A stretch of DNA of 38,337 nucleotides from Geothermobacteraceae bacterium. GTDB taxonomy: Bacteria; Desulfobacterota; Desulfuromonadia; Desulfuromonadales; Geothermobacteraceae. The DNA is taken from assembly GCA_035266745.1 (NCBI GenBank), contig DATFMT010000215.1:1-38337 (forward strand), read 5' to 3'. A program made the position numbers and the translations under genes. Below, in pieces: positions 1,739 through 28,015 of this stretch. The number at the start of each line of letters is the position of its first letter. The stretch's first letter is position 1. The notes below the pieces were generated by a model. The model did not search any database. It was not told the origin of the DNA and was given only the letters and a program-made list of their open reading frames with translations.

Positions 1739-1741
1739 AGG

Positions 1742-5226: not shown

Positions 5227-5303
5227 TTGGGCACCTTGCATCTGAAACCTCTGGCTGTGCCGTAGTTACTCCCGGTTTATATAGCCCAATCGTTAAATGC
5301 TGG

Positions 5304-6578
5304 TTATCCTTTGAAGGGACAGTACCCCTTTTTCACATGATCTTCCAGTTCGTCCTCGAAATGGTTCAATAACCCTTCCAACGGTCCCATCGCCCCTTCG
5401 GCGAGGGCGCAGAAGGAACGGCCGGCGATATTCTTATGCTGATCCCTGAGCATGGCGATCAGCTCCCGGCTGCCGCGCCCGGCCTCGATCTCCTCGAGCA
5501 GCCAGCGCACCATCACCAAGCCGTCGCGACAGGGGGTGCACCAGCCGCAGGATTCGCGGGCGAAGAATTTCATCAGGTTGAGGGTCGCGCCGACCATGCA
5601 GGTGTCGCTGTCAAAAGCGGTCACGCCGGCGGTGCCGAAGCGGCTGCCGACCGCGGCCAGCGGATCGAAATCGAGCGCCACGTCGAGGTGCGCGGCGGTC
5701 AGATAGGGGGTCGAGGCCCCGCCGGGCAGGCAGGCCTTGAAACCCTTGCCGCCGCGCATGCCGCCGCCGATCTCAAGCACTTCACGCAGGGGGATGCCGA
5801 CCGGCAGCTCGAAACATTCGGTACGCTCGAGGTGACCGGAGAGGCCGAACAACTTGGTCCCGGACCCCTCCGGATTAACGGCCAGATCCTTGAACCATTC
5901 ACTACCGCCGGTGAGGATGTGCGGCACGTTGGCCACCGTCTCGATATTATTGACCGTGGTCGGTTTGCCGAACAGCCCCTTGACCGCCGGGAAGGGCGGC
6001 TTGCTGCGCGGATTGGCCCGCACCCCCTCGATGCCGTTGAGCTGGGAAGTCTCCTCGCCGAGGATGTAGCGGCCGGCGCTGCGGTGGACGTGGACCTGCA
6101 GGCCGTAGCCGCTACCGAGGATGTCCGGGCCGAGATAGCCGGCCTGCTTGGCCTCTTCGATGGCCCGCTCCAGGTTGCGTGAGCACTCCTCGTAGGCGTA
6201 GCGGATGAAGATATAGGCTTCCGGAACCTGCAGGGCGTAGGCCGAGACGATGACCCCTTCGAGGACCTGATGCGGGTCGGCCAGCAGCAGCTGCTTGTCC
6301 TTGTAGGTTCCCGGCTCCATCTCGTCGCCGTTGACCACCAGATACTTTGTCCCCGGCTGATCGGCGGGGAAGAACGACCACTTCAGCCCGGTCGAAAAGC
6401 CGGCACCGCCCCGGCCGCGCAGTCCCGAGGCCTTGACCGTCTCGCGTACCTCGGCCGGGGTCATGGACTTGAGCGCCCTTTCCAAACCCCGGTAGCCGCC
6501 GTTTTTGCGGAACTCGTCGAAAAAGACGGTCTCGCCAGGGCGGCGGTTCTTGAAGAGGATTTGCGGGTAGTCGGCCAT
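5304..6578 (-). CDS. nuoF: NADH-quinone oxidoreductase subunit F (NuoF), NADH/FMN-binding
   Basis: 424 aa. Contains GLRGRGGAGFSTGLKW (FMN/NADH site), a GDEMEPGT-type motif and C-terminal 4Fe-4S cysteines (ESCGWCTPCRDG). Confidence 0.95.
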   Translation of the reverse strand: MADYPQILFKNRRPGETVFFDEFRKNGGYRGLERALKSMTPAEVRETVKASGLRGRGGAGFSTGLKWSFFPADQPGTKYLVVNGDEMEPGTYKDKQLLLADPHQVLEGVIVSAYALQVPEAYIFIRYAYEECSRNLERAIEEAKQAGYLGPDILGSGYGLQVHVHRSAGRYILGEETSQLNGIEGVRANPRSKPPFPAVKGLFGKPTTVNNIETVANVPHILTGGSEWFKDLAVNPEGSGTKLFGLSGHLERTECFELPVGIPLREVLEIGGGMRGGKGFKACLPGGASTPYLTAAHLDVALDFDPLAAVGSRFGTAGVTAFDSDTCMVGATLNLMKFFARESCGWCTPCRDGLVMVRWLLEEIEAGRGSRELIAMLRDQHKNIAGRSFCALAEGAMGPLEGLLNHFEDELEDHVKKGYCPFKG

Positions 6579-6582
6579 GGCG

Positions 6583-7068
6583 TCAGGCTTTTTCCTTGTT
6601 CAGGATCGCATCCACCAGCTCCGGCGTCAGCCGGCCGTAGGTGGTCAGTCCAATCATCATTGCCGGGGCGTCGCCGCAGGCGCCGAGACAGCAGGTCGGC
6701 AGCAGGGTAAACACTCCATCGGCGGTCGTTTGGCCCGGAGCAATGCCGAGTTTTTGTTGCAGGTAGTCGTAGACGTGCTCGCCGTCGCGGCTCCAGCAGC
6801 AGATCGAATCGCAGACATGGATCACCTTGCGTCCCACCGGCTGACGGTAGATCTTGTCATAGAAGGTGGCGATCTCTTCGATCTGCAGGACAGAGAGGCC
6901 GAGGATGCTGCCGGCCAGTTCGACCCCGGCATCCGGTACCCAGCCGTGATGATCCTGAATCGCCCGCAGCAGATCGACGATCAATTCACGCGGGTGCTTG
7001 ATCGCCGCTGCCTTGGCGCGGAACGCTTCGAGCTGGTCTTGGGGGAGGAGTTTGTTCATAAGTTCCAT
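6583..7068 (-). CDS. nuoE: NADH-quinone oxidoreductase subunit E (NuoE), thioredoxin-like 2Fe-2S
   Basis: 161 aa. Cysteine pattern HVCDSICC...CCLGACGDAP is typical of NuoE. Lies between nuoBCD and nuoF. Confidence 0.93.
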   Translation of the reverse strand: MELMNKLLPQDQLEAFRAKAAAIKHPRELIVDLLRAIQDHHGWVPDAGVELAGSILGLSVLQIEEIATFYDKIYRQPVGRKVIHVCDSICCWSRDGEHVYDYLQQKLGIAPGQTTADGVFTLLPTCCLGACGDAPAMMIGLTTYGRLTPELVDAILNKEKA

Positions 7069-9453
7069 TTATCTATCCAGATCCGCCAGCACGAAATCGA
7101 TCGATCCCAAAATCGTGATCAAATCGGCGATCAACCAGCCACGGCTCATCAGCCCGGTCATCTGCAGGTGCGGGAAACTCGGGGTGCGAATCCGTGCCCG
7201 GTAGGGGACGTTGTTGCCGTCAGAGACCAGGTAGTAGCCGCACTCCCCCTTGCTCGATTCGATCGCCCGGTAACATTCGCCGCGCGGCGGGGTCATGCCG
7301 CGGGTGACGTTGCAGAAATGGTGGATCAGGCTCTCGATGTCCTGCAGGCCATCCTTTCGCTTCGGATAGACGTAGCGGTAATCCTCGCCGATCCAGCGCC
7401 CGCCCGGCATCTCGGCGGCGGCCTGCTTGATGATCTTCAGGCTTTCGCGCATCTCGCGCATGCGCACCTGGTAGCGGGCAAAGGAGTCGCCTCCGGTTGC
7501 GGTCGCCACATCGAAGTCATATTTCTCGTAGCCGGAATAGGGCATCTTGCGGCGCAGGTCCCACTCCAGGCCGGTGGCGCGCAGGTTCGGGCCGCTCATG
7601 CCCCAATCGATTGCTTCGTCGGTTGTCACTGCGCCGACCCCCTCGGTGCGGGCGCGGAAGATCGGACCGTCGTTGAGCAGGGTTTCCAGTTCGTCGAGGC
7701 GCTTGTCGAAATCCTTGGTAAAGGTGTGAACAACAGATTCCCAGCCCTTCGGCAGGTCCTGCGGAACACCGCCGATCCGGAACCAGGAGGGGTGCATGCG
7801 GCCGCCGGTGACCATCTCGACGATGTCGAAGATCTTCTCGCGCGATTCCAGGGCATAGAAAACCGGGGTCATGGCGCCGACGTCGTGGGCGAAGGTGCCG
7901 AGCCAGACCAGGTGGTTGGCGAGCCGGAACAGCTCGCAGAGCATGACCCGGATCGCCTGGGCGCGCTGCGGTACCTCGAGCCCGAGCAAGGTCTCCAGCG
8001 GCAGCAGGTAGGCGAGGTTATTCTGCACCCCGGAGAGGTAGTCGATGCGGTCGGTGTAGGGGATGAACTGGTTCCAGTGCTGACGCTCGGCCATCTTTTC
8101 GGCGCCGCGATGGTGGTAACCGATGTCGAGATCGACGTCCTCGATCTCCTCGCCGTCGAGCAGCAGGATCAGGCGCAGCACGCCGTGGGTGCCCGGGTGG
8201 TGCGGGCCGATGTTGAGCACCATCGGCTCCTCACCGGGTTTGATCTTGCGCCCCTTGAAGAAGTCACCCCCTTCGCGGGGAATCATGGTAGCGGCTGTTT
8301 CGGCGGTGTAGGCCGCCATCTCACTGGCACGGAAGACGTGCTCCTTGCGCAGCGGGTGCCCTTGCCACGAATCGGGCATCAGGATCCGGCGCAGGTCGTG
8401 GTGGCCGGTGAAGCGCAGCCCGAACATGTCGTAGACTTCCCGTTCGTACCAGTTGGCAGAGGGCCAGAGGTCGGTGATCGACGGCGCTTCCGGGTGGTCA
8501 CCGGTCAACGGTACCTTGACCCTCAGGTAGCCGGGATCGTCGAAATTGGTCAGGTGGTAGGTGAGGGTGTAATCGTGGCCTGACTTGCTGACCCGGGCGG
8601 TCTCATCGACGGCGGTCAGGTCTTCGAGCCGCCGGTACTTGACCGGGGCTTCCTGCTTGAGAAAGCGCAGCAGTTCCGGAGCGTCTTCCGCCGCGCTCAC
8701 CAGGGTCGGCATGTCGGCGGCATCCTCCTCGCGGACCCGCTCGCCGAAGCGCGCCGCAAGCGTCTGGCGCAGGTTCCCCGTCGAGGCGGGAAACTCGATC
8801 TGTGGTTGAGCCGGTCGCCACATCGCGTTCGAGCGGCTCTGCCAGAAGGTCGGCTGCTGCATGCTGGTGCCGCGGATGCTGCTGTTGCCGTAGCCGGGGC
8901 CGCGCGGGTCGCGGCTCTTGCTGACGCCGTCGATCAGGATTTCCCGGGTGGTCCCCTCGTGACCCCCCTGCATGCCGAGCACCTTGCGGGCCGGCTTCTC
9001 CTCGTTGCGGATTTTCTCCTGCAGCAGCATGATCCCCTGGATGAAGGCTTCCGGGCGCGGCGGGCAGCCGGGGACATAGACGTCGACCGGGACGATCTGG
9101 TTGACCCCCTGGATGACGCTGTAGACATCGTACATGCCGCCGGAGTTGGCGCAGCTCCCCATTGAAATAACCCATTTCGGGTTGGTCATCTGTTCGTAGA
9201 GGCGCAGGATCGACGGCCCCATCTTCTTGAACGGGGTGCCGGAGATCACCATCAGGTCGGCTTCGCGAGGGGTGCCACGCAGCACCTCGGCGCCGAAGCG
9301 GGCCAGGTCGAAGCGCGGGGTGAGGCTGGTGGTCATCTCGACGAAACAGCAGGAGAGACCGAAGAACATCGGCCACATGCTGTTGCTGCGCGCCCAGTTG
9401 ATGACGTCGTCGAGCGTCGTCAGGATGACATTGTCGGGGATTTCTTCAGTCAT
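7069..9453 (-). CDS. nuoBCD: Fused NADH-quinone oxidoreductase subunits B, C and D in one 794-aa polypeptide
   Basis: A single uninterrupted ORF. The N-terminal part is NuoB ([26 protein letters not shown] = N2 cluster ligands). A low-complexity linker of about 70 aa follows. The middle part is NuoC-like ([19 protein letters not shown]). The C-terminal part is NuoD ([13 protein letters not shown]...YTDRIDYLS...[12 protein letters not shown]). Confidence 0.93.
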
Positions 9454-9905
9454 AGTTCCTGTCCGCGACGCTGGACCGTCCTCGGCCGGGGGCCCCAGTC
9501 GAGGCCGCCCATCTTCCAGAGATAGACTAGGCCGAGAAACAGCACGACGATGAAAAAGGTGATTTGCCAGAAACCGGCCCAGCCGATCAAATCCCAGGCG
9601 ACCGCCCAGGAGACGATGAAAATCGCCTCGACATCAAAGACGATGAAGAAGATCGCCACCAGGTAAAAAGGCACCGGTTCGCGAAGTTTGGCTTCCCCGG
9701 TCGGCGCGATGCCGGATTCGTAGGGTTCCTCTTTGAGCCCGCCACGGGACTTGTGGCCGAGCAGCCAGCTGACCACCATCAGCGTGCCGATCAAGATCAG
9801 GGCGATCACCCCGTAGAGGACGAGCGACAGCAACCCTTCGGCACTCGGCGGGCTTTCTCCGCCGGTCGGGACCGGCAGCTGGCTGGCTAGGTTGAGGATC
9901 GGCAT
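9450..9905 (-). CDS. nuoA: NADH-quinone oxidoreductase subunit A (NuoA)
   Basis: 151 aa. Contains the NuoA/ND3 core ([32 protein letters not shown]). Its stop overlaps the nuoBCD start by 4 nt. The exact start is uncertain because the N-terminus is longer than usual. Confidence 0.88.
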
Positions 9906-13201: not shown

Positions 13202-13708
13202 TCAGTGCTTGTGCAAGAGTTGTAGTATTCCCTGCAACAGTTGCAGCGGGGTTGGCGGGCAGCCGGGGATCACCGCGTCGACGGGCAAAACCTGTGCGAC
13301 ACCGGCACAACTGGCATAGGACTCGCCGAACTCCCCGCCATGTTTCGCGCAGTCACCCATGGCAATGACCAGTTTGGGGGCTGGCGTTGCATTGTAGGTA
13401 CGCTGCAGCGCCTCCTGCATGTGGCGAGTCACCGGGCCGGTGACCAGGAGCAGATCGGCATGCCGTGGCGAGGCGACGAAGTGGATTCCGAAGCGTTCGA
13501 TATCGTAGAAACCGTTATTGACAGCGTGCATTTCGAGCTCACAGCCGTTACAGGACCCGGCGTCAACCATCCGGATAGCCAGCGAGCCGCCGAACTGGCG
13601 CGCGATCTCACGCTGGCAGGCGGTCCCGAGTTCGGCAACCTCAGCACCGACGGACACGGGTTCGGTCAGCTTGCCAGTTTTGAGAGTTTTTTTATAGAGA
13701 TGATACAT
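13202..13708 (-). CDS. ehrS: Ehr/Hyf-type complex small subunit (NuoB/HycG/HyfI-like), [4Fe-4S] ligands present
   Basis: 168 aa. All four cluster cysteines are present in GSCNGCELE, GDCAKHGG and PGCPP. Symbol assigned by analogy to the Geobacter ehrABCDLS naming, recalled from memory. Confidence 0.85.
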   Translation of the reverse strand: MYHLYKKTLKTGKLTEPVSVGAEVAELGTACQREIARQFGGSLAIRMVDAGSCNGCELEMHAVNNGFYDIERFGIHFVASPRHADLLLVTGPVTRHMQEALQRTYNATPAPKLVIAMGDCAKHGGEFGESYASCAGVAQVLPVDAVIPGCPPTPLQLLQGILQLLHKH

Positions 13709-13742
13709 CGTCGCTGCTCCTCAAGGTTGCCGGTTCGACCCG

Positions 13743-15347
13743 TTACAAGTCATGTCCGCTATAGGAGCCATTGACCGATTTGTTGCAGGCCGGAAAATCG
13801 GGGACAATCGTACCGTCAGTCATCTGTTCGAGCGCCAGCCAGTTGAGCCAGCTGGGATCTCGCGGGAAGTAGCGTAAAACCCGCCCCTGTGCATCGAGGC
13901 GCAGATAGGCCAGGGTTTCACCTCGCCAGCCCTCAATCAACCCCAGCCCCTGCACCTGCTGACCGGTCGCGTGACAGGGAACCGCAATAGCTGTCTTTGG
14001 CAGCTGGCGGAATAACTTGGCGAGCAGATCGATGGAAATCAGGATTTCATCCCCACGCACCCTGACCCGTCGTGCAATGTCCCCTTCGAGATAGGCTGGA
14101 ACCTCAACCTCAAGCTGGTCGTAAGGGGGGTAGGGCGCATCGCGGCGCAAATCATCCTGCAGATTGCTGGCGCGGCCGACATAACCCAAAACTCCGAGCC
14201 TGCTGGCGGTCTCCGGGGGCAGCACTCCGGTGTTGCGCAGGCGATCCTGCAGCGAGGGGTATTCGAGCAGCATCGGCAGCAGTTCTGCGACTTCGCTGCG
14301 CAGGCGCTCCCCGGCGGTCAGCAGGGCCTCGACCTGCTCTGCACCCAGGTCACTGTTCACCCCACCGGCGATCAGATAATCGAACAGCAGGCGGTGGCCG
14401 AAAAAATGCGCGTTATCGCGCTGCCAGAGTTCACGCAGCCGGGTCAGCTGGGTCTGGGCGAAGGCGAAACCGACGTCGTTACAGATGGCGCCGATGTCGC
14501 CAAGATGGTTGGCAATTCGTTCCCGTTCGCAGGCGATGGCCCGCAGGGCGAGGGCACGCGCCGGGAGTCGGGTGCCGAGTGCCTGTTCCGCGGCCTGGCA
14601 GGCGGCCCAACTGTGGGCGACGCTGCTATCGCCGGAGACTCGCGCAGCGAGGCGGATCAAACCCTGCAGATCGCGACCCACCGCAATTTTTTCGATTCCT
14701 TTGTGAACATAGCCGAGCCTCTCTTCGAGGCGCAGAATCGTTTCGCCGACCGCCTGAAAGCGGAAATGTCCCGGTTCGATGATCCCGGCATGAACCGGAC
14801 CGACCGGAATTTCGTAGACTCCGCTCCCCGCGATTGGCGGGAAGGGGTAGGTGGAATCGGCCGGGGTTTCAGCCGCAGGATGACCGGCGCGGGGAAAATC
14901 GTTGCGCAACGGATATTCATCCGCAGCCCAGCCCCGGTGGCGGGTCCAGCGGCGCTGATCCGGGTGGTCGCTGAAATGGACCCCGAGCAGATCCTGAATG
15001 TGGCGTTCCGGACGATCCGCAGCGGGGAAAAAGGGGGTCTGCGCGTTGAGCTGCGGATGATTCTCATCCAGAGCGGTTTCAACCAGCACCTGCCCGTCGC
15101 AGCCGGAAAACAGACTGAAAATCAGGATCCGTGGTGGGCAATGGTCCCCCCAACTGGCCGAAAAGCGCAGCGATTTCTTCGCCGCGATTTCGGCGACCTT
15201 GCCCCAGTCCGCCGCATTGACTCGCAGACGGCAGCAGCTTGGATTGAGCGCAGGTTGTTCGGCGACTTCAAGCTGCAGAGCCTGCAAGGCCTGTCCCAGC
15301 TCCCTGCTCTTGCCGGAGGTGACCCGTGCGGGTTGCCGCTGACTCAT
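13743..15347 (-). CDS. ehrL: Ehr/Hyf-type complex large subunit (NuoC-NuoD/HycE/HyfG-like) lacking NiFe-binding cysteines
   Basis: ORF 13743..15680 trimmed to the ATG at 15347 (MSQRQPARV...), which overlaps the stop of the upstream gene as ATGA. Contains the group-4 hydrogenase signature GPVHAGIIEPGHFRF. The RxCGxCxxxH site reads RVSGDSSVAH, and the C-terminus reads DFPACNKSVNGSYSGHDL instead of DPCxxCxxR. Confidence 0.88.
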   Translation of the reverse strand: MSQRQPARVTSGKSRELGQALQALQLEVAEQPALNPSCCRLRVNAADWGKVAEIAAKKSLRFSASWGDHCPPRILIFSLFSGCDGQVLVETALDENHPQLNAQTPFFPAADRPERHIQDLLGVHFSDHPDQRRWTRHRGWAADEYPLRNDFPRAGHPAAETPADSTYPFPPIAGSGVYEIPVGPVHAGIIEPGHFRFQAVGETILRLEERLGYVHKGIEKIAVGRDLQGLIRLAARVSGDSSVAHSWAACQAAEQALGTRLPARALALRAIACERERIANHLGDIGAICNDVGFAFAQTQLTRLRELWQRDNAHFFGHRLLFDYLIAGGVNSDLGAEQVEALLTAGERLRSEVAELLPMLLEYPSLQDRLRNTGVLPPETASRLGVLGYVGRASNLQDDLRRDAPYPPYDQLEVEVPAYLEGDIARRVRVRGDEILISIDLLAKLFRQLPKTAIAVPCHATGQQVQGLGLIEGWRGETLAYLRLDAQGRVLRYFPRDPSWLNWLALEQMTDGTIVPDFPACNKSVNGSYSGHDL

Positions 15348-16810
15348 AACAGCCCCCTGCCGACGACCATGATGGTCGCCTGGTCGAGCCAGCGGGAAAG
15401 GACGTCGGGGATGGCGATGCCGAGCAGCAGCACCAGCAGCAGATGGAGGACCACCGGCCACATGTTGGCGTCGATTGCGTCTTGTCCTGCAGGTTGTTCG
15501 CCGAAAACCATCGGTTGCACATGCCGGAACAGCCCCGAAAAGGCGACCGCCAGGCCGCTGAGCAGGGGAATCACCAGCCAGGGCCAGCTCTTGATCGTCG
15601 CGCTGAAGAGCAGGAATTCGCTGGTAAAGACGCCGAACGGCGGGAAGCCGGCAATGGCCACCGTGCCGAGCAAAAAGCACCAGCCGACCATCGGCTGGGT
15701 TTTTATCAGGCCGCGGATGCCATCAATGCTTTGAGTGCCGGCGACATGGGCGATGTGGCCGACGGTGACAAAGATCGAGGACTTGGTCAAAGAATGAACA
15801 ATCATGTGCAACAGCGCGCCGAAAGTGGCCAGCGGTCCGCCGATGCCGAAGGCAAAGGTCATCAGCCCCATGTGTTCGATCGATGAGTAGGAAAACATCC
15901 GTTTGATATCACGCTGGCGGTGGAGCAACAGTCCCGCGAGGGTGAAGGTGAGCAGGCCGAAGCCCATCATCATCCTGCCCGCCAGATCATTCTCCAACGC
16001 CGGATCGATGATCATCTTGAAGCGGACCAGCGCATAAAGCGCAATGTTGAGCAGCAGGCCCGAAAGAATGGCCGACATCGGTGTCGGCCCCTCGGAGTGG
16101 GCATCGGGTAGCCAGTTATGCAGAGGCACCAGGCCGACCTTGGTGCCGTAGCCGACCAGTAGAAATCCGAAGGCCAGCAACAGCACCGCCGGTTCAAGTT
16201 GGGTCGCATGCTGGTAGAGCACACTCCACAGCAGGCTGTCGTCACTGCCAGGCAGAATTCGTTCGGCGGCAAAATAGACCAGGACCGTGCCGAACAGCGC
16301 CTGGGCGATGCCGACCCCGCAGAGGATGAAGTATTTCCAGCCGGCTTCGATCGACTCGGGGGTGCGATAGAGCGACACCAGCAGCACGGTGGCCAGGGTT
16401 GCACCTTCGATCGAGACCCACAGAATCCCGAGATTGTTGGTCGAGAGGGCGACCAGCATGGTCAGCAGGAAGCCCTGATACATCGAATGGTAGAGCCGCA
16501 TGCGGCCGTCGTCGACCCGGCCGATTTCCCGTTCGTGAGCCATATAGGGGCGCGAAAAAACCGCGGTGGTCATGCCGACAAAGGCGTTGAGCAGAATCAG
16601 GTAGACGTTGAAGGCGTCGATATAGAACAGCTTGCCGGGGCTGAGCATCGGCCCCTGGTTGAAAATGTTGAGCGCCAGTTGCAGCGAGCAGACGAAGCCG
16701 GCGATACAGATCAGCAGATTGAGGGTGCCGGCGCTTCGCCAGTGGCCGATCACGCCGAAGAGCAGAGTGCCGATCAGCGGCAGCAACAAGGTCAGGTAAA
16801 GGGCACTCAT
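15344..16810 (-). CDS. ehrD: Antiporter-like membrane subunit (NuoM/N, HyfF-like)
   Basis: 488 aa polytopic protein. Conserved channel residues are visible (WVSIEGATL, GYGTKVGLVPLHNWLPDAHSEGP, HSLTKSSIF). 4-nt overlaps with both neighbouring genes. Confidence 0.88.
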   Translation of the reverse strand: MSALYLTLLLPLIGTLLFGVIGHWRSAGTLNLLICIAGFVCSLQLALNIFNQGPMLSPGKLFYIDAFNVYLILLNAFVGMTTAVFSRPYMAHEREIGRVDDGRMRLYHSMYQGFLLTMLVALSTNNLGILWVSIEGATLATVLLVSLYRTPESIEAGWKYFILCGVGIAQALFGTVLVYFAAERILPGSDDSLLWSVLYQHATQLEPAVLLLAFGFLLVGYGTKVGLVPLHNWLPDAHSEGPTPMSAILSGLLLNIALYALVRFKMIIDPALENDLAGRMMMGFGLLTFTLAGLLLHRQRDIKRMFSYSSIEHMGLMTFAFGIGGPLATFGALLHMIVHSLTKSSIFVTVGHIAHVAGTQSIDGIRGLIKTQPMVGWCFLLGTVAIAGFPPFGVFTSEFLLFSATIKSWPWLVIPLLSGLAVAFSGLFRHVQPMVFGEQPAGQDAIDANMWPVVLHLLLVLLLGIAIPDVLSRWLDQATIMVVGRGLL

Positions 16811-17484
16811 TTGTCGACCTCGGTCAAACGGTTGAGGTGATCAACGTCGAGGGAACCAATTCCCGAACGGATCTGGAAGAAGAAGATGCCGAACAGGACC
16901 GCCGCCACCAGCACGTCGAAGGCGACCCCCAGTTCAACGACCATCGGCATTCCGTAGGTAGAGACGACCGCGGCGAAGAAAAGCCCGTTTTCCATCGACA
17001 TGAAGCCGATGACCTGGGCGACCGCCTTGCGCCTGGTGATGATCATCAACATGCCGATCAGCACGACCGCTAATGAAATGGCGATCGTGTTGCGGGTCGC
17101 AAGCAGTGAGAGCTCGCGAATCGGCAGCACGACGTAGTAGCTGAAGAGAGTCAGGGCGCCGGCGGCGATCATGACCAGCGAGCTCCCGCCGACGGTCTCG
17201 ACGCTGCGGCGGATATCGAGCCGGACCACCAGGCGGCGCAACTGCCAGGGAATGAAGAAGACCTTCAAGCCCAGGGTCAGGGCCGCTGAAATGAACAAAT
17301 GATGGTGTCCCGAGCTGCTCGCCATCAGCACCGTGGCGGCAAACAACAGCACGCCCTGCCAGGCGAAGGTGTGAATCAGACCGATCATCCGCGTCTGGGC
17401 CAGCAGCAGAAAGGAACTGAAGAGGATCAGCGCGGCCAGGGTCAGGATCAGCTGTTCACTGAAGGTCAGCAGCGGGAAGCTCAT
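16807..17484 (-). CDS. ehrC: HyfE-like small membrane subunit (NuoK-related)
   Basis: 225 aa, about 7 hydrophobic helices. Size and position match HyfE of hydrogenase-4-type operons. Confidence 0.8.
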   Translation of the reverse strand: MSFPLLTFSEQLILTLAALILFSSFLLLAQTRMIGLIHTFAWQGVLLFAATVLMASSSGHHHLFISAALTLGLKVFFIPWQLRRLVVRLDIRRSVETVGGSSLVMIAAGALTLFSYYVVLPIRELSLLATRNTIAISLAVVLIGMLMIITRRKAVAQVIGFMSMENGLFFAAVVSTYGMPMVVELGVAFDVLVAAVLFGIFFFQIRSGIGSLDVDHLNRLTEVDK

Positions 17485-17485
17485 C

Positions 17486-18430
17486 TCAGCGCACCTCCAG
17501 GATCACATGGCTTAACATGCCGAGCAGCGAGAGAATGAAGGCCAGCCCCAACAGCTGTGGCACCCGGAACAGGCGCATCTTGGCCAGGCCGCTTTCGGCT
17601 GCGGCCAGCACAAAGCCGAGCAACATCAGTTTGATCAGTAACAGCAGCGCCGCAACCAGGAGGTCTGGCGGCGTCAAACTGGTCGCCATCCCCCAGGGGA
17701 CGAACAGATTCACCAGCAAGACGCCATAGAGCAGCAGTTTGATCATCGCCGCCCACTCCATCAGGGCCAGATGGCGACCGCAGTATTCGAGGATCATCGC
17801 TTCGTGGACCATGGTCAGTTCGAGATGGGTCGCCGGGTTGTCGACCGGGATCCTCCCGGTTTCGGCCACGGCCACCAGCACCAGTCCCATGGCGGCGAAA
17901 ATAAAGGATGGATAGAGTTGAAACGGACGCTGCAGCAGGGCGCTGATCATGGTCGAGAGGTTGGTGCTCGAAACGCTCATCGCCAGAGTGAAGATCGCAA
18001 GTAACATCGCCGGTTCAGCCAGCGAGGAGATGGTCATCTCGCGCGAAGAACCCATGCCGCCGAAGGCGGTGCCGATATCCATCCCGGCCAGGGCGAGAAA
18101 GAATCGACCGAGGGCAAAAAAACCGACCAGCACAATGGCATCAGCCAGCGCCGAGGTCGGCAGGTTGGGAGCGACCAGCGGGATCACCGAACAGGCCAGA
18201 GCAGTGACGCTGAAGACGATATAGGGCGCAATCCGGAAGATGGTCGAGGCGTTCGCCGCGACCACGATCTCTTTGCGGAACAGCTTGCCCAGATCGCGGT
18301 AAGTCTGCCAGGGCGCCGCACCCTGGCGATTCTGGAATTTGCACTTGCACCATTTCACCCAGCCGCTCAGCAAGGGCGCGGCGGCGATCATCAGCCCGGT
18401 TTGCAAGAGTGCCAGCAACCAGCCGTTCAT
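17486..18430 (-). CDS. ehrB: NuoH/HycD/HyfC-like membrane subunit
   Basis: 314 aa polytopic protein with the HycD/NuoH-like core (RIPVDNPATHLELTMVHEAMILEY). There is a 1-nt gap to the next gene, and its start overlaps the stop of the upstream gene by 4 nt. Confidence 0.87.
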   Translation of the reverse strand: MNGWLLALLQTGLMIAAAPLLSGWVKWCKCKFQNRQGAAPWQTYRDLGKLFRKEIVVAANASTIFRIAPYIVFSVTALACSVIPLVAPNLPTSALADAIVLVGFFALGRFFLALAGMDIGTAFGGMGSSREMTISSLAEPAMLLAIFTLAMSVSSTNLSTMISALLQRPFQLYPSFIFAAMGLVLVAVAETGRIPVDNPATHLELTMVHEAMILEYCGRHLALMEWAAMIKLLLYGVLLVNLFVPWGMATSLTPPDLLVAALLLLIKLMLLGFVLAAAESGLAKMRLFRVPQLLGLAFILSLLGMLSHVILEVR

Positions 18431-20433
18431 ACCAGGATCCAGAGGATAAGGAGCAGGGTGAAGAAGGAGTAGGAGAGATAGATGCGGATGTTCCCCCCCT
18501 GAATCAGTGAGGCCCGTTTGGCCGCCGCCAGCAGAAGTTGCCCGATCGGAAGATAGATTTTTTGCCAGGCCCAGTCGCCGACTTCAAGCTGATAACGTTC
18601 CGGGCTCTGACCCGTGGCGGGGAGCACTGCTTCTTTATGTGGCCAGACCGGGCTGAAAATGCGTCGAATCGGCATGCTGAAGGCGGTAGCGGTGTATTGC
18701 ATCCGCGCATTTAAGGGGCCGAAGCCACAATCCCAGGGGGGCGCGATGCGCGTTGGAGTACGACGGCGCTGTGGATGAAACCAGAGCCAGCTGATCAGCC
18801 AGGCCAGTGCCAGGCCGAGCAGCACCATTGGCGCTCCGTAAGAGGCCGCTGCCGGTGAGATTGGTGTCAACCAGAGAGCGCCGCCGGCAGTCGCTTCGGC
18901 TAAGTCCTGGTGCAACAGCAGCTCTGCTATGTTGCTCAACACGCCGACCGTCCAAGTCGGCATGACGCCGAAACCGAGGCAACAGAGCGCCAGAATCGCC
19001 TGGGCAAAGCGCATCCCGTAGGAGGCTTCACTCGCGGTCTTTGCCGGTTCGCTCCGCGGCAGGCCGAGAAACACCACGCCGAAGACCTTGACGAAACAGG
19101 CCGCAGCCAACGCCCCGGTCAGTGCCAGGACTGCCGCCGCGACCGGAATCAGCGAGCCGAGCACGCCACTTTCCAACGCCGGACCCTGCAGGGCCGCCTG
19201 AAAGGTCAGCCACTCCGAGACGAAGCCATTAAAAGGCGGCAGCGCCGAAATACTGATACAGCCGATCAGAAAACAGCTGGCGGTGAAGGGCATGCGATGG
19301 ATCAATCCGCCCATCTTCTCCATGTCGTGCTGTTTGCTGTGCTGCAGAACCGCACCGGCGCCGAGAAAAAGCAGGCTCTTGAAGAGTGCGTGATTCAGGC
19401 AGTGATAAAGTGCGGCGACCAGGCCCAGGGCGGCAAGGCTCGGGTGGCCGGTCCCGGCGAAAATAATGGCAAGGCCGAGACCGATGTAGATGATGCCGAT
19501 ATTTTCAACGCTGTGGTAGGCCAGCAGACGCTTTAAATCATGCTGCATCAGCGCATAGAGGACCCCGAGCAGGGCTGAAGCCGCTCCGACAACCAGGACC
19601 AGCACCCCCCATTGCCAATGAAAATTGCCAAGGAGTGAAAAACTGAAGCGGATAAAGCCGTAGACGGCGACCTTGAGCATCACCCCCGACATCAGCGCCG
19701 AAATATGCGAGGGTGCCACCGGGTGCGCCTGGGGCAGCCAGACATGCAGAGGCACTAGGCCCGCTTTTATACCGAAGCCGACAAAAGCGAGTAGAAAGGC
19801 GATGGTCTCCCACCCGGGCGACAGTTGAGCGCTGGCCATATCGGAGAAGGCAAAGCCACCGCCAAATCCCGAGAGGATGCCAAAACCGAGTAAAATGCAG
19901 AGTCCGCCGACCTGGGCCATCAACAGGTAGATGAAGGCGGCGCTGCGGTTTTCAGCGCGATGGTGTTGATAAGCCACCAGAAAGTAGCTGGAGACCGACA
20001 TCAGTTCCCAGCTGACCATGAAGGAAAAGGCATCGGCAGCTAACGTCAGCAGGAACATGCCGGTGACAAACAGCCCACTGAAGATCGTAATTAGTGCCAG
20101 CGGCTGGCCCTCCGCTTCGTACTCCCGGCAATAAGCCGGGCCGTAACAGGCGACGACGCTGGTAATCAGACCGACAATGGCGAGAAAAAACCCGGCCAGG
20201 GGATCAAGCGCAAAGTGGCTCTGCAACCAGGGGAGGCCGATCGGCAAGATGATCTGCGAAGTTTGTCGCAGGACCAAGGCCATTCCGCCGGCCACTACGG
20301 CCGAAATGCCGGCGAGGCCAAGCAGGGTAAACGCCAGGCTTTTGTAGAGACGAGGGAAACGGTAAACGAGTAGCGGGAGCAGTGCGGAACAGAGCGCGAG
20401 AACAACCGCTAGTTGTGCAATCGGTAGTGGCAC
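18427..20433 (-). CDS. ehrA: NuoL/HycC/HyfB-like antiporter-type membrane subunit
   Basis: 668 aa. Conserved residues are visible in VSWELMSV, GFGIKAGLVPLHVWLPQAHP and NHALFKSLLFLGAG. HyfB/HycC-type C-terminal segment (PPWDCGFGPLNARMQYTATAFSMP). GTG start with AAGGAG about 10 nt upstream. Confidence 0.88.
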   Translation of the reverse strand: MPLPIAQLAVVLALCSALLPLLVYRFPRLYKSLAFTLLGLAGISAVVAGGMALVLRQTSQIILPIGLPWLQSHFALDPLAGFFLAIVGLITSVVACYGPAYCREYEAEGQPLALITIFSGLFVTGMFLLTLAADAFSFMVSWELMSVSSYFLVAYQHHRAENRSAAFIYLLMAQVGGLCILLGFGILSGFGGGFAFSDMASAQLSPGWETIAFLLAFVGFGIKAGLVPLHVWLPQAHPVAPSHISALMSGVMLKVAVYGFIRFSFSLLGNFHWQWGVLVLVVGAASALLGVLYALMQHDLKRLLAYHSVENIGIIYIGLGLAIIFAGTGHPSLAALGLVAALYHCLNHALFKSLLFLGAGAVLQHSKQHDMEKMGGLIHRMPFTASCFLIGCISISALPPFNGFVSEWLTFQAALQGPALESGVLGSLIPVAAAVLALTGALAAACFVKVFGVVFLGLPRSEPAKTASEASYGMRFAQAILALCCLGFGVMPTWTVGVLSNIAELLLHQDLAEATAGGALWLTPISPAAASYGAPMVLLGLALAWLISWLWFHPQRRRTPTRIAPPWDCGFGPLNARMQYTATAFSMPIRRIFSPVWPHKEAVLPATGQSPERYQLEVGDWAWQKIYLPIGQLLLAAAKRASLIQGGNIRIYLSYSFFTLLLILWILV

Positions 20434-20493: not shown

Positions 20494-20774
20494 TCTGTCG
20501 TTGGGTGGGCTATTCTAGAACGGCATTCTGTAACTGTCAAACGGAGTCTGCAGGTAAATATTGGTTCGATATGCTCAAACAACAGTGAAAAGTTTTGCTT
20601 TGCGCCGCTTTCGTGGCGTAAAACCACTTTTTAAGGTTGAATTATTTTCTTGCAGGCGTATGATCACCCGCTGTTGGACAAGACCTGCAAGGCCCTGCCC
20701 GGCGTATTCCGCCGACACCTGGACGTACCGCCCTCGCTGCCGACGGACATCCGTGAACTCTGCATTGAGGGAGA

Positions 20775-22520
20775 TTGCGCGTGTCCCAGAATCGACTGGT
20801 TCCCAAGCTCTTCAGTACCCTGCGGGAAGGCTATTCCCGCCAACAATTCAGCAATGACCTGCTGGCCGGCGTCATCGTCGGTATCGTCGCCCTGCCGCTG
20901 GCGATCGCCTTCGCCATCGCCTCGGGGGTCAAGCCGGAACAGGGGATCTACACCGCGGTGGTGGCCGGCTTTCTGATCTCGGCGCTCTCCGGCAGCAAGG
21001 TGCAGATCGGCGGGCCGACCGGCGCCTTTATCGTCATCGTCTACGACATCGTCCAGCGCTACGGCTACGACGGCCTGGTGATCGCCACCCTGATGGCCGG
21101 TGCGCTGCTGGTGCTGATGGGGCTGGCGCGGCTCGGAGCGGTGATCAAGTTCATCCCCTACCCGGTGACGGTCGGCTTTACCAGCGGCATCGCCCTGCTG
21201 ATCTTTTCCGGCCAGTTGCGCGACCTGTTCGGCCTGCAGCTGGAGACGGTCCCCTCGGAGTTTATCGAGAAGCTTGCCGCCTACGGCGAACACCTCGGCA
21301 GTATCTCCCCGGCAGCGGCCGCCATTGGCCTGACGACCATCCTCGTCATTCAGCTCTGGCCCAGGGTGACCCGCCGGGTGCCGGGGTCGCTGGTGGCCAT
21401 CCTGCTCACCACCTTGCTGGTGAGTCTGTTCGACCTGCCGGTGGCGACCATCGGCAGCCGCTTCGGCAGTGTGCCGAACAGTCTGCCGCTGCCGCACCTG
21501 CCGGCGCTCCCCGACTGGGCTCATCTTCGGCAGCTGTTCTCCCCGGCGCTGACCATCGCCCTTTTGGCCGGGATCGAGTCGCTGCTATCGGCGGTGGTCG
21601 CCGACGGCATGATCGAGAGTCGCCATCGTTCCAACATGGAGCTGATCGGCCAGGGGGTGGCCAACCTGGTCTGCCCGCTGTTCGGTGGCATCCCGGCCAC
21701 CGGGGCGATTGCGCGCACCGCGACCAACATCAAGAACGGCGGTCGCACCCCGATCGCCGGCATGGTCCACGCGCTGACCCTGCTGCTGATTCTGCTGTTT
21801 TTTGGCAAGTGGGCGGCGCTGATCCCGATGCCGACCCTGGCTGGAATCCTGGTGGTGGTCGCCTGGAACATGAGCGAGGCGCATCTGTTCGCCAAGCTGT
21901 TGCGTGCCCCGCGTGGTGATGTGCTGGTGTTATTGTCGACCTTTGGCTTGACAGTGCTGGTCGATCTGACCGTCGCAATCCAGGTCGGCATGGTGCTGGC
22001 CGCGTTTCTGTTCATGCAGCGGATGGCCGACGCCACCCAGGTCGGTTTTATCACCCGGGAGCTGCAGGATGGTGAAGATGAAACCAGCGATGATCCACTC
22101 AGCCTGAGTCAACGGGATGTCCCGGTCGGGGTTGAGGTGTTCGAGATCAACGGCCCGTTTTTCTTCGGTGCCGCCGACAAGTTCAAAAATGCCCTGGACA
22201 CAGTCAGTGTCCCGCCGCGAGTCTTGATCCTGCGGATGCGCCATGCCCTGACCCTGGATGCCACGGCCCTGCAGGCGCTGGAGAACGTTCATACAAAAGC
22301 GCTTAAACGTGGTACCCTGTTGCTGTTGTCCGGAGTCCATGCCCAGCCGTTGCTGGTCATGGAGCGTTCCGGTTTTCTTGACCGGTTAGGTCAGGAGAAT
22401 GTCTTTGCCAACATCGACGCGGCGCTGAATCGATCCCGCGAGACGCTCGGTCTTCCGGTGGTTGCGGCTCCCGGTGCATTTGTGCCGACCGTGACCCGGG
22501 AAATCAATCCGGAAGCCTAA
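20775..22520 (+). CDS. SulP-family anion transporter (sulfate/bicarbonate permease type) with C-terminal STAS domain
   Basis: 581 aa. The N-terminus [36 protein letters not shown] is a typical SulP signature. More than 10 TM segments and a C-terminal STAS-like domain ([15 protein letters not shown]). TTG start at 20775, or GTG at 20781. Confidence 0.88.
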
Positions 22521-23833: not shown

Positions 23834-23911
23834 TGGCGTCCCCAGGGGGATTCGAACCCCCGTCGCCGCCGTGAAAGGGCGGTGTCCTGGGCCAGGCTAG
23901 ACGATAGGGAC
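23834..23911 (-). tRNA. tRNA-Glu (anticodon UUC), copy 1, CCA encoded
   Basis: Minus strand reads GTCCCTATCGTCTAGCCTGGCCCAGGACACCGCCCTTTCACGGCGGCGACGGGGGTTCGAATCCCCCTGGGGACGCCA. Cloverleaf checked by hand. Anticodon loop is CTTTCAC and T-loop is TTCGAAT. Confidence 0.93.
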
Positions 23912-25975: not shown

Positions 25976-28015
25976 TTACCTGCAGGTTACATCCGTGGTA
26001 GCTGTGACTGCATCGTTAGTCATCACTCTATTCTCAGTCGCATCAATTGTTGCGGTCCATGTTATCGTCCCTGAACCGGGTTGGATGCATGAGATGTCAG
26101 CATTGAAACCGAAACGATCACCACCTTTGCCTGGCGTTACAGAACTCGTAATGCTGGTTGGCGATACACTTATGTTCACCAGATCCGCAGGCACCTCCCA
26201 CGATAGTGCAACAGTCGCTTCCTGTGCCTTTGTATCAGCTTCAGCAACCGCTGTAAGACCTTTCGTGGCAGTTTGCGTTCCCAGTTTCACACTTTTGGGC
26301 GCTTGAAGCTTATCGACATATACGTCGGCCTCTATCTGCGGCTCGATCGTGGCAGTCGTTGTCGCGGTATCGATCAATCCGTTGTTATCGGTGACTGTCA
26401 GGGAAACCGTGTAGGTTCCTGCCGATGAATAGGTATGGGTCGGGCTCACTCCAGTTTCAGTGGTGCCATCACTGAAATCCCACAGGTAGGAGACAATCGT
26501 ACCGTCAGGGTCATTCGATCCGGAGCCGTCAAACTGGACGGGAGCACCGACTGTGCCGGTGTACGGTCCATTCGGATCTGCGATCGGCGGTTGCGGTTGG
26601 GGAACATCCGCAATCGTGGCCGTCGACGTAGCGGTATCGCTCAGCCCGTCGGTATCGGTAACGGTCAGGGCAACCGTATAGTTTCCTGCGGATCCATAGA
26701 CATGGGATGGGTTCACACCCGCCCCGGTGCCACCATCACCGAAATCCCATTCATAGGCAACAATCGATCCGTCAGGGTCATTCGATCCGGAGCCGTCAAA
26801 CTGGACGGGAGTACCAGCAGTGCCGACGTACGGACCATTCGGATCAGCGACCGGCGGTAACGGTTGAGGAACATCCGCAATCGTAGCCGTCGTAGTCGCA
26901 GTATCGGTCAAACCATCGGTATCGGTAACTGTCAGGGAAACCGTATAGGTCCCTGCGGAACCATAGAAATTGACTGGATTCACACCCGTCGCTGTGTTGC
27001 CATCACCAAAATCCCAATCATAGGCAACAATCGATCCGTCAGGGTCATTCGATCCTGAGCCGTCAAACTGGACGGGAGCACCGACAGTGCCGGTGTACGG
27101 ACCATTCGGGTCTGCGACCGGCGGTTGCGGTTGGGGAACTTCCGCAATCGTGGCCGTCGATGTTGCAGTATCGCTTCCACCGTCGTTATCAGTGACGGTC
27201 AGGGCTACCGTATAGGTTCCTGCGGATCCATAGACATGGGATGGGTTCACACCCGCCCCAGTGCTGCCGTCACCGTAGTCCCATTCGTACGCGACTATCG
27301 TTCCGTCAGTGTCATTGGACCCTGAGCCGTCAAATTGGACCGGAATACCGGCTGTGCCGCTGTATGGTCCATTCGGGTCTGAGACCGGCGGTTGGTTAAC
27401 TGGACAGTCTGGATCGGCCGTATCGTAGAGGCCGTCGCCGTCATTGTCCAAGCCAATAAAATCCCCTGCGGTCCAGTTTTCATTTATCCCCGCTTGCCTG
27501 ACAGGGTTGCAGGGCTCATCGGCGTTGGTGTCGTTCGTCCCGTAGTAGGGAGGAAAAACATGTTCACCGACCGGTGTGTAGTTTGCGGGGTTGGCGTCGC
27601 TATGGCAGAGCGAGCAGCTGGATACTCCTGCATTAGTGTGGTGTTGACGCAGTCCAGCACCGCGGCCGGCAGAGATAGAATCATGGCCTTCGTCTTCGAC
27701 CCGTCCGTGGCAGCCGACACAACCGAGTCCTGGGTTATCCGCAGTGCCGTCGGAGAAACCGATATACGGATTTCTGTTGTCGCTTGAGGTGTGGCACAGG
27801 TTGCACGCCGTGGCCATGGCACTGGAACTTCGGTGCATAGAGTGCTTGTCGCCCGCTGGAAAGGTTGACCCCTTGGTCGACGTGCCGCCGGTAAACGCCC
27901 CGTGACAGTTCTGACAGCCATCGTTGTACCTTGAATAGGCGTGAGTATCTGACGCCCACATTCCAAATGCCACAATGATAAATAAAACATATGGCAACAA
28001 TCGAATTCTTTTCAT
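25976..28015 (-). CDS. Secreted tetraheme c-type cytochrome domain fused to four PKD domains and a C-terminal Ig-like domain
   Basis: 679 aa. N-terminal signal/anchor (LLPYVLFIIVAFGMWA). Four CxxCH motifs (CQNCH, CNLCH, CVGCH, CSLCH) lie within aa 34-138. A DNDGDGLYDTADPDC Ca-binding-like motif follows. Four repeats of about 89 aa carry PKD hallmarks (FDGSGSNDPDGSIVAY-WDFGDG). RBS GGGAGAG is present. Confidence 0.85.
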   Translation of the reverse strand: MKRIRLLPYVLFIIVAFGMWASDTHAYSRYNDGCQNCHGAFTGGTSTKGSTFPAGDKHSMHRSSSAMATACNLCHTSSDNRNPYIGFSDGTADNPGLGCVGCHGRVEDEGHDSISAGRGAGLRQHHTNAGVSSCSLCHSDANPANYTPVGEHVFPPYYGTNDTNADEPCNPVRQAGINENWTAGDFIGLDNDGDGLYDTADPDCPVNQPPVSDPNGPYSGTAGIPVQFDGSGSNDTDGTIVAYEWDYGDGSTGAGVNPSHVYGSAGTYTVALTVTDNDGGSDTATSTATIAEVPQPQPPVADPNGPYTGTVGAPVQFDGSGSNDPDGSIVAYDWDFGDGNTATGVNPVNFYGSAGTYTVSLTVTDTDGLTDTATTTATIADVPQPLPPVADPNGPYVGTAGTPVQFDGSGSNDPDGSIVAYEWDFGDGGTGAGVNPSHVYGSAGNYTVALTVTDTDGLSDTATSTATIADVPQPQPPIADPNGPYTGTVGAPVQFDGSGSNDPDGTIVSYLWDFSDGTTETGVSPTHTYSSAGTYTVSLTVTDNNGLIDTATTTATIEPQIEADVYVDKLQAPKSVKLGTQTATKGLTAVAEADTKAQEATVALSWEVPADLVNISVSPTSITSSVTPGKGGDRFGFNADISCIQPGSGTITWTATIDATENRVMTNDAVTATTDVTCR
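26336..27391 (-). repeat. Four tandem repeats of about 267 bp encoding the PKD domains
   Basis: Protein repeats at aa 209-297, 298-386, 387-475 and 476-560 are near-identical in long stretches (e.g. PPVADPNGPYTGTVGAPVQFDGSGSNDPDG). The same periodicity is visible in the DNA. Confidence 0.85.

Follow-up and report, generated by a model that had tools for sequence, protein, structure and literature searches.

A Six-Gene Ehr/Hyq-Type Operon Without a Ni-Fe Site in a Geothermobacteraceae Bacterium

The Six-Gene Operon

Contig DATFMT010000215.1 of a Geothermobacteraceae bacterium (assembly GCA_035266745.1), an uncultured Desulfuromonadales-like organism, carries an operon of six genes on its minus strand at positions 13202-20433. 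All coordinates refer to the whole stretch of DNA that was analysed (38,337 nucleotides, nt), hereafter called the window. The operon almost certainly belongs to the Ehr/Hyq family (hyfBCEFGI type), whose six-subunit complexes descend from a membrane-bound [NiFe] hydrogenase of group 4 (4f-like) and no longer possess the Ni-Fe site. This family has been known since 2005-2009, and the copy described here is a rediscovery, an ordinary six-gene member of the Hyq type.

The genes are designated A (ehrA/hyqB), B (ehrB/hyqC), C (ehrC/hyqE), D (ehrD/hyqF), L (ehrL/hyqG) and S (ehrS/hyqI), and are listed with the other features of the window in Table 1. Open reading frames (ORFs) and family profile matches bear out the gene order proposed in an earlier note on this DNA, namely HyfB-, HyfC-, HyfE- and HyfF-like genes followed by the large and small subunits. 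The same note had all genes coupled by ATGA overlaps or a 1-nt gap, which holds for four junctions, with 4-nt overlaps at A/B, C/D and D/L and a 1-nt gap at B/C; the L/S junction is instead a 34-nt spacer with a GGAG ribosome-binding site. Gene A starts with GTG at 20433, preceded by an AAAGGAG ribosome-binding site. Gene L starts with the ATG at 15347 that overlaps the stop codon of gene D as ATGA, the GTG at 15680 given by the ORF lister not being the start, and a 100% identical protein of 534 amino acids (aa) is recorded in a Joint Genome Institute (JGI) metagenome.

With a divergent SulP/STAS gene upstream and unrelated short-chain dehydrogenase and metallo-beta-lactamase-fold genes downstream, the operon forms a self-contained six-gene unit. 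A hidden seventh gene was sought in the 790-nt stretch downstream of S and in the upstream intergenic region, but none of the fetched loci contains a relative of either, and the ORFs there match no Pfam family. A search for a sigma-54/NifA-type promoter upstream of the operon gave nothing above chance. The ORF and Pfam scan of the six-gene cluster found no 2x[4Fe-4S] subunit of the HycF/EchF/MbhN type, and no hyp or hydrogenase protease gene occurs among the larger ORFs of the window. The cluster accordingly has no HycF/NuoI-type or NuoEFG/formate dehydrogenase input module of its own, as had been claimed. The broader statement that NuoI, NuoEFG and hyp genes are missing from the window stands for the cluster and, as regards hyp and protease genes, for the larger ORFs, but fails for NuoI, E, F and G, which are encoded in the nuo operon of the window.

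Table 1. Features of the six-gene operon and of the remainder of the window.
Feature	Position	Strand	Description
Gene A	18427-20433	minus	668 aa; HyfB-like, antiporter-type; NF005086 (hydrogenase 4 subunit B) 816 bits, cut-off 667; PF00361
Gene B	17486-18430	minus	314 aa; HycD/HyfC/NuoH-like; PF00146 match
Gene C	16807-17484	minus	225 aa; HyfE-like small membrane subunit, NuoK-like C-terminal half; NF008556 86 bits (below cut-off 136); PF00420 weak
Gene D	15344-16810	minus	488 aa; HyfF-like, antiporter-type; NF005045 (hydrogenase 4 subunit F) 724 bits, cut-off 543
Gene L	13743-15347	minus	534 aa; fused NuoC-like and HycE-like large subunit; PF00329 and PF00346, weak PF00374
Gene S	13202-13708	minus	168 aa; NuoB/HycG/MbhJ-like small subunit; PF01058; without ferredoxin-like domain
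Candidate sigma-70-type promoter	20512..20540	minus	TTGACA-17-TAGAAT, 11/12, consensus match only; ~80 nt upstream of gene A
nuo operon	1-9905	minus	nuoA, fused nuoBCD, nuoE, F, G, H, I, J, K; 3.3 kilobases (kb) from the six-gene operon
Fused nuoBCD gene	7069-9453	minus	794 aa; Oxidored_q6, 30 kDa and 49 kDa domains
SulP/STAS anion transporter	20775-22520	plus	divergent from the six-gene operon

The Large Subunit and the Lost Ni-Fe Site

Among solved structures, L is most similar to HycE of Escherichia coli (7z0s_E, E=3e-57), followed by MbhL (1e-36) and NuoCD/Nqo4 (~1e-28 to 1e-30). In the alignment with HycE, the segment RVCGICGFAH corresponds to RVSGDSSVAH in L, and DPCYSC corresponds to NGSYSG. 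The four Ni-Fe ligand positions are thus occupied by Ser238, Ser241, Ser528 and Gly531, and the ligands of the RxCGxC ... DPCxxC signature are all gone. This alignment bears out the earlier description of a large subunit without NiFe ligands, the check for Cys at the four positions having found none there. The pocket of L carries the motifs RVSGDS and NKSVNGSYSGHDL, while the loop GPVHAGIIEPGHFRF is strictly conserved among relatives. Furthermore, the protein terminates where the mature C-terminus lies, leaving no extension for a maturation protease to cleave. Public annotations nevertheless name this subunit 'Ni,Fe-hydrogenase III large subunit'.

The AlphaFold model of L (mean predicted local distance difference test score, pLDDT, 80.6; predicted template modelling score 0.86) also has HycE (7z0s_E) as its best fold match, with a template modelling (TM) score of 0.82 and E=6.5e-35.

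The Small Subunit and the Membrane Arm

The closest solved relatives of S are MbhJ (3.9e-35) and HycG (2e-34). Residues C53, C56, C120 and C150 align with the proximal-cluster ligands of both proteins and are 100% conserved in 70 relatives, in agreement with the earlier statement that the small subunit retains four [4Fe-4S] cysteines. The motif is the hydrogenase-type SCNGCE, unlike the CC motif of NuoB, and the 168 aa contain no extra Cys motifs.

Subunit B, which we take to be the interface joining the peripheral module to the membrane arm, has HycD (7z0s_D) as its best solved relative, at 4.9e-43 compared with ~1e-6 for NuoH, and displays numerous invariant acidic residues across relatives. 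Since L, S and B are far closer to HycE, HycG and HycD than to NuoD, NuoB and NuoH, the peripheral and interface module is of the hydrogenase type and not of the complex I type, supporting the earlier view that the cluster is not simply redundant with Nuo.

The antiporter-like subunits retain their channel residues. E143, K223, H230/237/243, K352 and E407 of A are invariant in 57 relatives, and E135, K224, H231/238, K343 and E398 of D in 72 relatives; the two subunits thereby share the Glu of transmembrane helix (TM) 5 (E143/E135), the Lys of TM7 (K223/K224) and the Lys of TM12 (K352/K343), together with neighbouring His residues. The motifs that the earlier note quoted for both subunits are present and invariant. 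For C, the HyfE-like subunit, no solved relative is detectable by sequence, and its two NuoK-type Glu residues (E165, E184) are invariant. Per subunit, 22-38% of alignment columns are invariant across phyla.

Distribution and Genomic Context

A scan of one genome per species recovered at least 575 relatives, whose carriers include iron reducers, sulfur oxidisers, methanotrophs, nitrite oxidisers and rhizobia. The 80 best loci were examined. They belong to Desulfuromonadota, Desulfobulbales, Burkholderiales, Nitrospinota, Methylomirabilis and many Gammaproteobacteria (Chromatiales, Methylococcales, Thiotrichales, Acidiferrobacterales and others), with large-subunit identities of 50-68%; the closest named large subunits, from metagenome assemblies, are those of Geopsychrobacter (70%), Geothermobacter and Desulfuromonas/Desulfuromusa. 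On contigs of sufficient length the order A-B-C-D-L-S is kept, with 50-87% identity per subunit, apart from loci L028, L064, L074, L075 and L080.

Some of these loci have peculiarities of their own. The S gene lies ~1.8 kb apart from the L gene in a gammaproteobacterial locus (L028, 11485-13271), and upstream on the opposite strand in L080. A large-subunit gene coding for 532 aa, with 57% identity to L of the window, stands as an orphan in a metagenome-assembled genome of Thiocystis violascens (L074, 9902-12965), where a pucC-type gene directly follows it, and in Chromatium okenii (L064), the other five genes not being nearby. A six-gene copy of Candidatus Methylocalor cossyra (L085, OZ026885.1) is located on a 148-kb plasmid between transposase genes, an arrangement that would fit horizontal spread of the six genes together; in this copy a further ORF of 103 aa is annotated between the genes for the HyfF-like and the large subunit.

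The genes that recur beside the operon encode anion and cation transporters and regulators, including SulP, CNNM/CorC, TrkH, beta-carbonic anhydrase, and proteins of the XRE type and of the phosphotransferase system (PTS) EIIA type. A small XRE-type regulator, equivalent to HyqR of rhizobia, precedes the operon immediately and in the same orientation in 17 gammaproteobacterial loci; the window lacks it. A regulator combining helix-turn-helix (HTH) and PTS-EIIA domains was found in six Desulfuromonadales loci, and sigma-54 activators in seven loci. SulP anion transporters occur within a few kb in 8 of the ~46 loci with sufficient upstream sequence (L025, L045, L054, L061, L067, L068, L073, L079), all of them gammaproteobacterial or 'Muproteobacteria'; the SulP of the window is of another subtype, 27% identical. 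CNNM/CorC is present at four loci and beta-carbonic anhydrase at two. These associations are weak, confined to few lineages and only suggestive, and that of SulP may reflect either a link to anion transport or chance. A role in inorganic-carbon or sulfur-anion metabolism, prompted by SulP, carbonic anhydrase and TauE neighbours, was set aside on account of associations too sparse and lineage-restricted.

Ni-Fe-Containing Sisters and a Seven-Gene Paralogue

The wider family was surveyed by searching 50%-identity cluster representatives with L and aligning the 109 nearest full-length sequences. No Cys is found at any of the four Ni-Fe positions in 78 of these representatives, all four are present in 19, and one or three in the remaining 12. 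The 19 four-Cys representatives form approximately one separate clade, their last common node comprising 21 leaves. Asp240, located between the two former N-terminal Cys positions, is Asp in 67 of the 78 Cys-less sequences and in none of the 19 four-Cys sequences, which have Val, Ala or Leu there. This pattern indicates that the residue was gained and the pocket remodelled, and not merely degraded.

The Ni-Fe-containing sisters (group-4f-like) share with the window the gene order, the subunit sizes, the lack of a separate HycF and the motifs GPxHAGIIEPGHFRF and NKSFxLxY, with large subunits 35-40% identical. They differ in keeping RxCGxC and CYxC, in having Val, Ala or Ile in place of Asp240 and, in some cases, in bearing a ferredoxin domain on the small subunit. 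In Desulfitobacterium hafniense DCB-2 (CP001336; L087, 4956-12141) the same six genes occur with all four Ni-Fe Cys and no HycF-like gene; its small subunit is a plain 155-aa protein whose N-terminus resembles that of S in the window. This cluster is in itself a candidate for a minimal group-4 hydrogenase. A sister on a Desulfotomaculum contig likewise has six genes and no separate HycF, its small subunit carrying an N-terminal two-cluster ferredoxin domain. A TauE-family transporter gene precedes the Ni-Fe-type sister cluster at locus L086.

The absence of HycF does not go hand in hand with the loss of the Ni-Fe site, as the D. hafniense sister shows. Because the Ni-Fe-containing sisters (L086, L087) also do without HycF, its absence is ancestral in the clade and not diagnostic on its own, and electrons must enter these complexes at the small subunit.

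Desulfuromonadales possess a second, paralogous cluster without Ni-Fe ligands, found in Geopsychrobacter (L081, 13097-21605) and Desulfuromonas versatilis (L090, 1570-12292). It comprises an HTH and PTS-EIIA-type regulator, two HyfB-like genes, HyfC-, HyfE- and HyfF-like genes, and a large and a small subunit (seven-gene type). Its large subunit is 33% identical to L of the window, and its small subunit of 251 aa has an N-terminal 2x[4Fe-4S] domain with two CxxCxxCxxxCP motifs. The retention of this electron-input domain after Ni-Fe loss argues that these complexes still transfer electrons. The seven-gene paralogue lies in tandem with the six-gene type in Geopsychrobacter and is absent from the window, whose operon departs from it in having a single HyfB-like gene and a 168-aa S without a ferredoxin domain.

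The Named Family and Published Work

Coppi 2005 and Marreiros et al. 2013 reportedly dealt with Ehr of Geobacter sulfurreducens. Over 20 years the family has been seen in Geobacter, Acidithiobacillus, Nitrospira, rhizobia and candidate phyla. Under the name Ehr it denotes group-4-related complexes without Ni-Fe ligands and of unknown function (PMC6349859, PMC10284858, PMC6728331, PMC4758237), whereas in Acidithiobacillus and Nitrospira the cluster is called hyfBCEFGI (PMC7735108, PMC5596200). In Acidithiobacillus ferrooxidans the subunits went undetected during growth on H2, and HydDB classes the catalytic subunit as a non-hydrogenase (PMC7735108).

All Ehr subunits of G. sulfurreducens have been detected in its proteome, varying with the electron donor and more abundant with formate than with H2, their role being described as 'never investigated' (PMC7894505). 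In strain KN400, missense mutations arose in two ehr genes over 17 years of electrode culture, and relaxed selection was suggested (PMC13194489). Like the window, G. sulfurreducens (GSU0739-0745) has a large subunit without Ni-Fe ligands, a NuoB-like small subunit and HyfB/C/E/F-like membrane subunits (PMC7894505, PMC4758237), and it belongs to the same bacterial order as the source of the window, but it differs in having seven locus tags, including ehrA-1 and ehrA-2. Going only by these gene names and the seven tags, we infer that G. sulfurreducens Ehr is the seven-gene paralogue and not the type of the window; Geobacter names were not among the best 120 matches listed in the homology searches. 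The copy in the window is therefore probably not of the seven-gene Geobacter type. Its earlier assignment to a Geobacter ehrABCDLS type was sound as to a six-gene, group-4-related complex without Ni-Fe ligands, and needs correction as to the type, which is Hyq.

The Hyq type was described from Azorhizobium caulinodans, where three papers on hyqRBCEFGI describe the effects of its deletion and argue for a bidirectional H2:quinone 'endo-hydrogenase' (Ng et al. 2009, PMC2650096; PMC2930871; Sprecher et al. 2012, PMC3357923), the complex being presented as a six-subunit core version of complex I (PMC2650096, PMC3357923). The genes belong to the NifA regulon and are sigma-54 dependent. Their deletion slows diazotrophic growth by ~20%, abolishes the recycling of endogenous, nitrogenase-derived H2, and cuts by ~80% the very high H2 evolution that a hupSL mutant shows under microaerobic conditions; the growth defect is unchanged by saturating external H2. 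The authors themselves call the catalytic site 'speculative' (all PMC2650096, PMC3357923). The endo-hydrogenase claim is contested and mechanistically unexplained. Hence, the earlier statement that substrate and role are unassigned overlooked the Azorhizobium phenotypes and the activity claimed for them.

The relationship to Hyq is close. Over nearly the full length, identities between the window and the hyqRBCEFGI cluster on plasmid pSRDI969_4 of Rhizobium sp. SRDI969 are 45% for A, 50% for B, 37% for C, 53% for D, 43% for L and 60% for S, compared with 33% for the large subunit of the seven-gene type. Hyq of A. caulinodans and rhizobia agrees with the window in its six structural genes and their order and in lacking HyfA, D, H and J; in both, the large subunit fuses NuoC and HycE and has neither CxxC motif, and the small subunit has four cluster Cys. 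Unlike the window, Hyq has the hyqR regulator, a sigma-54/NifA promoter and a microaerophilic diazotroph as host. In A. caulinodans HyqG both CxxC motifs are gone and Cys-258, -491 and -497 are described as 'completely conserved' (PMC3357923); the Rhizobium plasmid HyqG has Cys259, 491 and 497. L of the window keeps two members of this trio, C289 and C521, but has Gly527, an invariant Gly in its clade, at the third position (Cys-497). The Cys trio consequently marks an alphaproteobacterial subgroup and not the whole family.

Comparison with Known Systems

Among solved structures, L, S and B find their best relatives in E. coli formate hydrogenlyase 1 (FHL-1, Hyc; 7Z0S); among protein families, A, C and D match HyfB, HyfE and HyfF best. 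FHL has a Ni-Fe site, HycF, HycB, formate dehydrogenase H and Hyp/HycI maturation, whereas the cluster in the window has none of these. Complex I (Nuo) shares with it homologues of NuoB, C, D, H, K and L/M/N, the position of the N2-type cluster and the antiporter channels; it differs in that the cluster has no NuoA, E, F, G, I or J, that the quinone ligands are gone and that similarity to NuoH is marginal. The large and small subunits of MBS/MBX (Pyrococcus, 6U8Y) are detectable but far more distant relatives (2.5e-19 and 7.4e-20). These complexes nonetheless set a precedent for a group-4 relative without hydrogenase chemistry in which redox near the proximal cluster is still coupled to ion translocation. 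MBS comprises 13 subunits, including the NuoI-like MbsN and an Mrp-type module. With Mrp antiporters, the window shares only the MrpA/D- and MrpC-like folds, the hydrogenase-type L and S being integral to its operon.

Proposed Function and Alternatives

The operon appears to be functional, an assessment well supported by the invariance of 22-38% of its columns across phyla and by the detection of Ehr subunits in G. sulfurreducens. Judging from the sequence features described above, the complex may be a redox-coupled ion translocator with the [4Fe-4S] cluster of the small subunit as its sole cofactor, a tentative reading to which we give somewhat less than an even chance. Electrons would be exchanged between the single [4Fe-4S] cluster of S and a soluble low-potential carrier of the cytoplasm (ferredoxin or flavodoxin being the simplest choice), which would dock directly on the S/L module, in the place where HycF or NuoI sits in FHL and complex I. 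The other exchange partner of the cluster would be an acceptor bound where L, S and B meet, in the remodelled pocket lined by Ser and Asp. The conserved Glu/Lys/His residues that form a chain through B, C, D and A would pass on the resulting charge change and so drive the movement of H+ or Na+. The machine could run forward, conserving energy, or in reverse, the proton-motive force then driving the reduction of the low-potential carrier. A membrane quinone would be the most economical guess for the acceptor, although the canonical quinone ligands are absent and B is HycD-like. Reverse, proton-motive-force-driven reduction of ferredoxin in respiring diazotrophs or reductive tricarboxylic acid (rTCA) cycle autotrophs would fit both the NifA control of the Azorhizobium genes and a growth defect not cured by H2.

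Several observations weigh against this proposal. The quinone ligands Tyr87 and His38 of Thermus thermophilus Nqo4 correspond in the L alignment to Gly and Ile, respectively, which means that the canonical complex I quinone site is absent; B, moreover, is by far closer to HycD, a subunit of an enzyme that does not use quinone, than to NuoH. The AlphaFold model is unreliable (pLDDT <50) at the pocket loops, residues 173-215 and 513-534, which pack against partners, so the geometry of the pocket cannot be read from it. No homologue of NuoI, E, F or G, HycF-like proteins included, is encoded within 10 kb at any of the 80 loci. A recurrent redox gene was equally absent from the surroundings of the operon, whether by all-against-all clustering of flank ORFs (~55 loci) or by a Pfam survey, in 55 loci, of the two genes closest to the operon on either side; the search for a conserved partner gene proposed in the earlier note thus yielded only recurring transporters and regulators, which fit an ion-homeostasis role equally.

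Such a role defines the alternative that survives best, although we regard it as unlikely: an ion transporter independent of redox chemistry (an Mrp-type cation/proton antiporter or an ion-homeostasis device), in which L and S would merely cap the complex or regulate it, perhaps gating transport as a redox or Fe-S sensor. In its favour, the conservation of the antiporter channels is complete, none of the 80 loci has a gene for a redox partner nearby, SulP is the commonest non-regulatory neighbour (with a divergent SulP of the other subtype in the window itself), CNNM/CorC, TrkH and carbonic anhydrase genes also lie nearby in some loci, and PTS-Ntr-like EIIA regulators are found upstream in Desulfuromonadales. 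On the other hand, the neighbour associations are weak and restricted to few lineages, and the reading is countered by the strict conservation of the four cluster Cys and of the loop GPVHAGIIEPGHFRF, by the gained Asp240, and by the two-cluster ferredoxin domain retained by the paralogue without Ni-Fe ligands. The Azorhizobium operon, in addition, is under NifA and its deletion gives H2-related phenotypes.

These phenotypes lie at the heart of a further alternative, the Hyq-type 'endo-hydrogenase', a cytoplasm-facing, bidirectional H2:quinone oxidoreductase activating H2 at a site other than Ni-Fe. We consider it improbable for the window. Its appeal lies in the orthologous architecture, with 43-60% identity to rhizobial hyq in five of six subunits (HyqE 37%), and in the effects of the A. 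caulinodans deletion on the recycling of nitrogenase H2 and on H2 evolution by the hupSL mutant (PMC2650096, PMC3357923). However, the four ligands are gone, no hyp genes are nearby, and Cys-497 of HyqG, which adjoins the old active site, is Gly527 in the window and its clade. The activity has never been demonstrated with purified enzyme, and general knowledge offers no H2-activating chemistry without Ni-Fe, Fe-Fe or iron-guanylylpyridinol (Fe-GP) cofactors. The persistence of the Azorhizobium growth defect under saturating external H2 suggests another role, and the family members of A. ferrooxidans, undetected on H2 and classed as non-hydrogenase (PMC7735108), and of G. sulfurreducens, scarcer with H2 than with formate (PMC7894505), likewise speak against a hydrogenase. 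Even slimmer is the chance that the Ser/Asp-lined pocket beside the single [4Fe-4S] cluster is a new site turning over H2 without nickel, as the Azorhizobium genetics would have it; if true, nickel-free H2 turnover would add Ehr/Hyq as a fourth class of hydrogenase, found widely in aerobes as well as anaerobes.

That the operon is a relic without function, under the relaxed selection suggested for G. sulfurreducens KN400 with its missense mutations in two ehr genes (PMC13194489), would be in keeping with the loss of the catalytic metal site, but is very hard to credit. The reading frames are intact and translationally coupled, gene order is constant and identity amounts to 50-87% across several phyla, and functional residues are invariant in all six subunits; purifying selection at this level contradicts the view of a decaying relic, as do the protein detected in Geobacter and the deletion phenotype of Azorhizobium.

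An ordinary Hyf/FHL-2 or Ech-type [NiFe] hydrogenase, with HycF, formate dehydrogenase and hyp genes outside the window, might be read from the NCBIfam equivalog models for hydrogenase 4 subunits B and F that are passed and from the public 'Ni,Fe-hydrogenase III' annotation, but it can be virtually discounted, being refuted already by the catalytic-site alignments, with no Ni-Fe Cys in the window or in 78 of the 109 nearest representatives and a separate clade for the 19 that have all four, and being at odds with the clear operon boundaries (divergent SulP, unrelated downstream genes) and with the lack of a HycF-like gene near any of the 80 relatives. What probability remains belongs to acceptors or roles not yet imagined.

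Other Features of the Window

The nuo operon was described earlier as complete, canonical and 3 kb from the six-gene cluster. Its proximity is confirmed, but its completeness is not apparent in the window, whose start cuts it off, nuoL, M and N lying beyond. The adjacency of nuo and ehr genes recurs in Geopsychrobacter electrodiphilus (L081).

An Rfam scan of the window returned three tRNAs only, all away from the operon. Two are tRNA-Glu(TTC), at 23834-23911 and 30212-30289 on the minus strand and ~6.3 kb apart, and the second adjoins a tRNA-Lys(TTT). Between the two tRNA-Glu copies lie genes for an Ada-like AraC/methyltransferase regulator, a GDSL lipase and a PKD-repeat protein, together with a low-GC stretch, and this region could be an inserted element. 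The gene at 25976-28015 (minus strand) encodes a secreted-looking protein of 679 aa with N-terminal CxxCH-type haem motifs (weak cytochrome c3/c7/MtrC-like matches) followed by four PKD domains. The adjoining ~1.5 kb (28016-29500) has a G+C content of ~41%, compared with ~60% elsewhere, and contains no credible ORF and no Rfam match.

Significance

As one more ortholog, the copy in the window adds little by itself, and tractable hosts for the family exist in Geobacter, Azorhizobium and Rhizobium. The gain is comparative. The names Ehr, hyfBCEFGI and Hyq come down to one orthologous six-gene type and one paralogous seven-gene type; the absence of HycF is older than the loss of the Ni-Fe site; a gained Asp marks the pocket without Ni-Fe; and no redox partner is genomically linked to the operon in 80 loci.

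With one Fe-S cluster and two antiporter modules, the family represents the simplest natural machine of the complex I/hydrogenase kind. Its reaction, once known, would fill a gap in bioenergetics and could explain how low-potential electrons are made or used in respiring bacteria.

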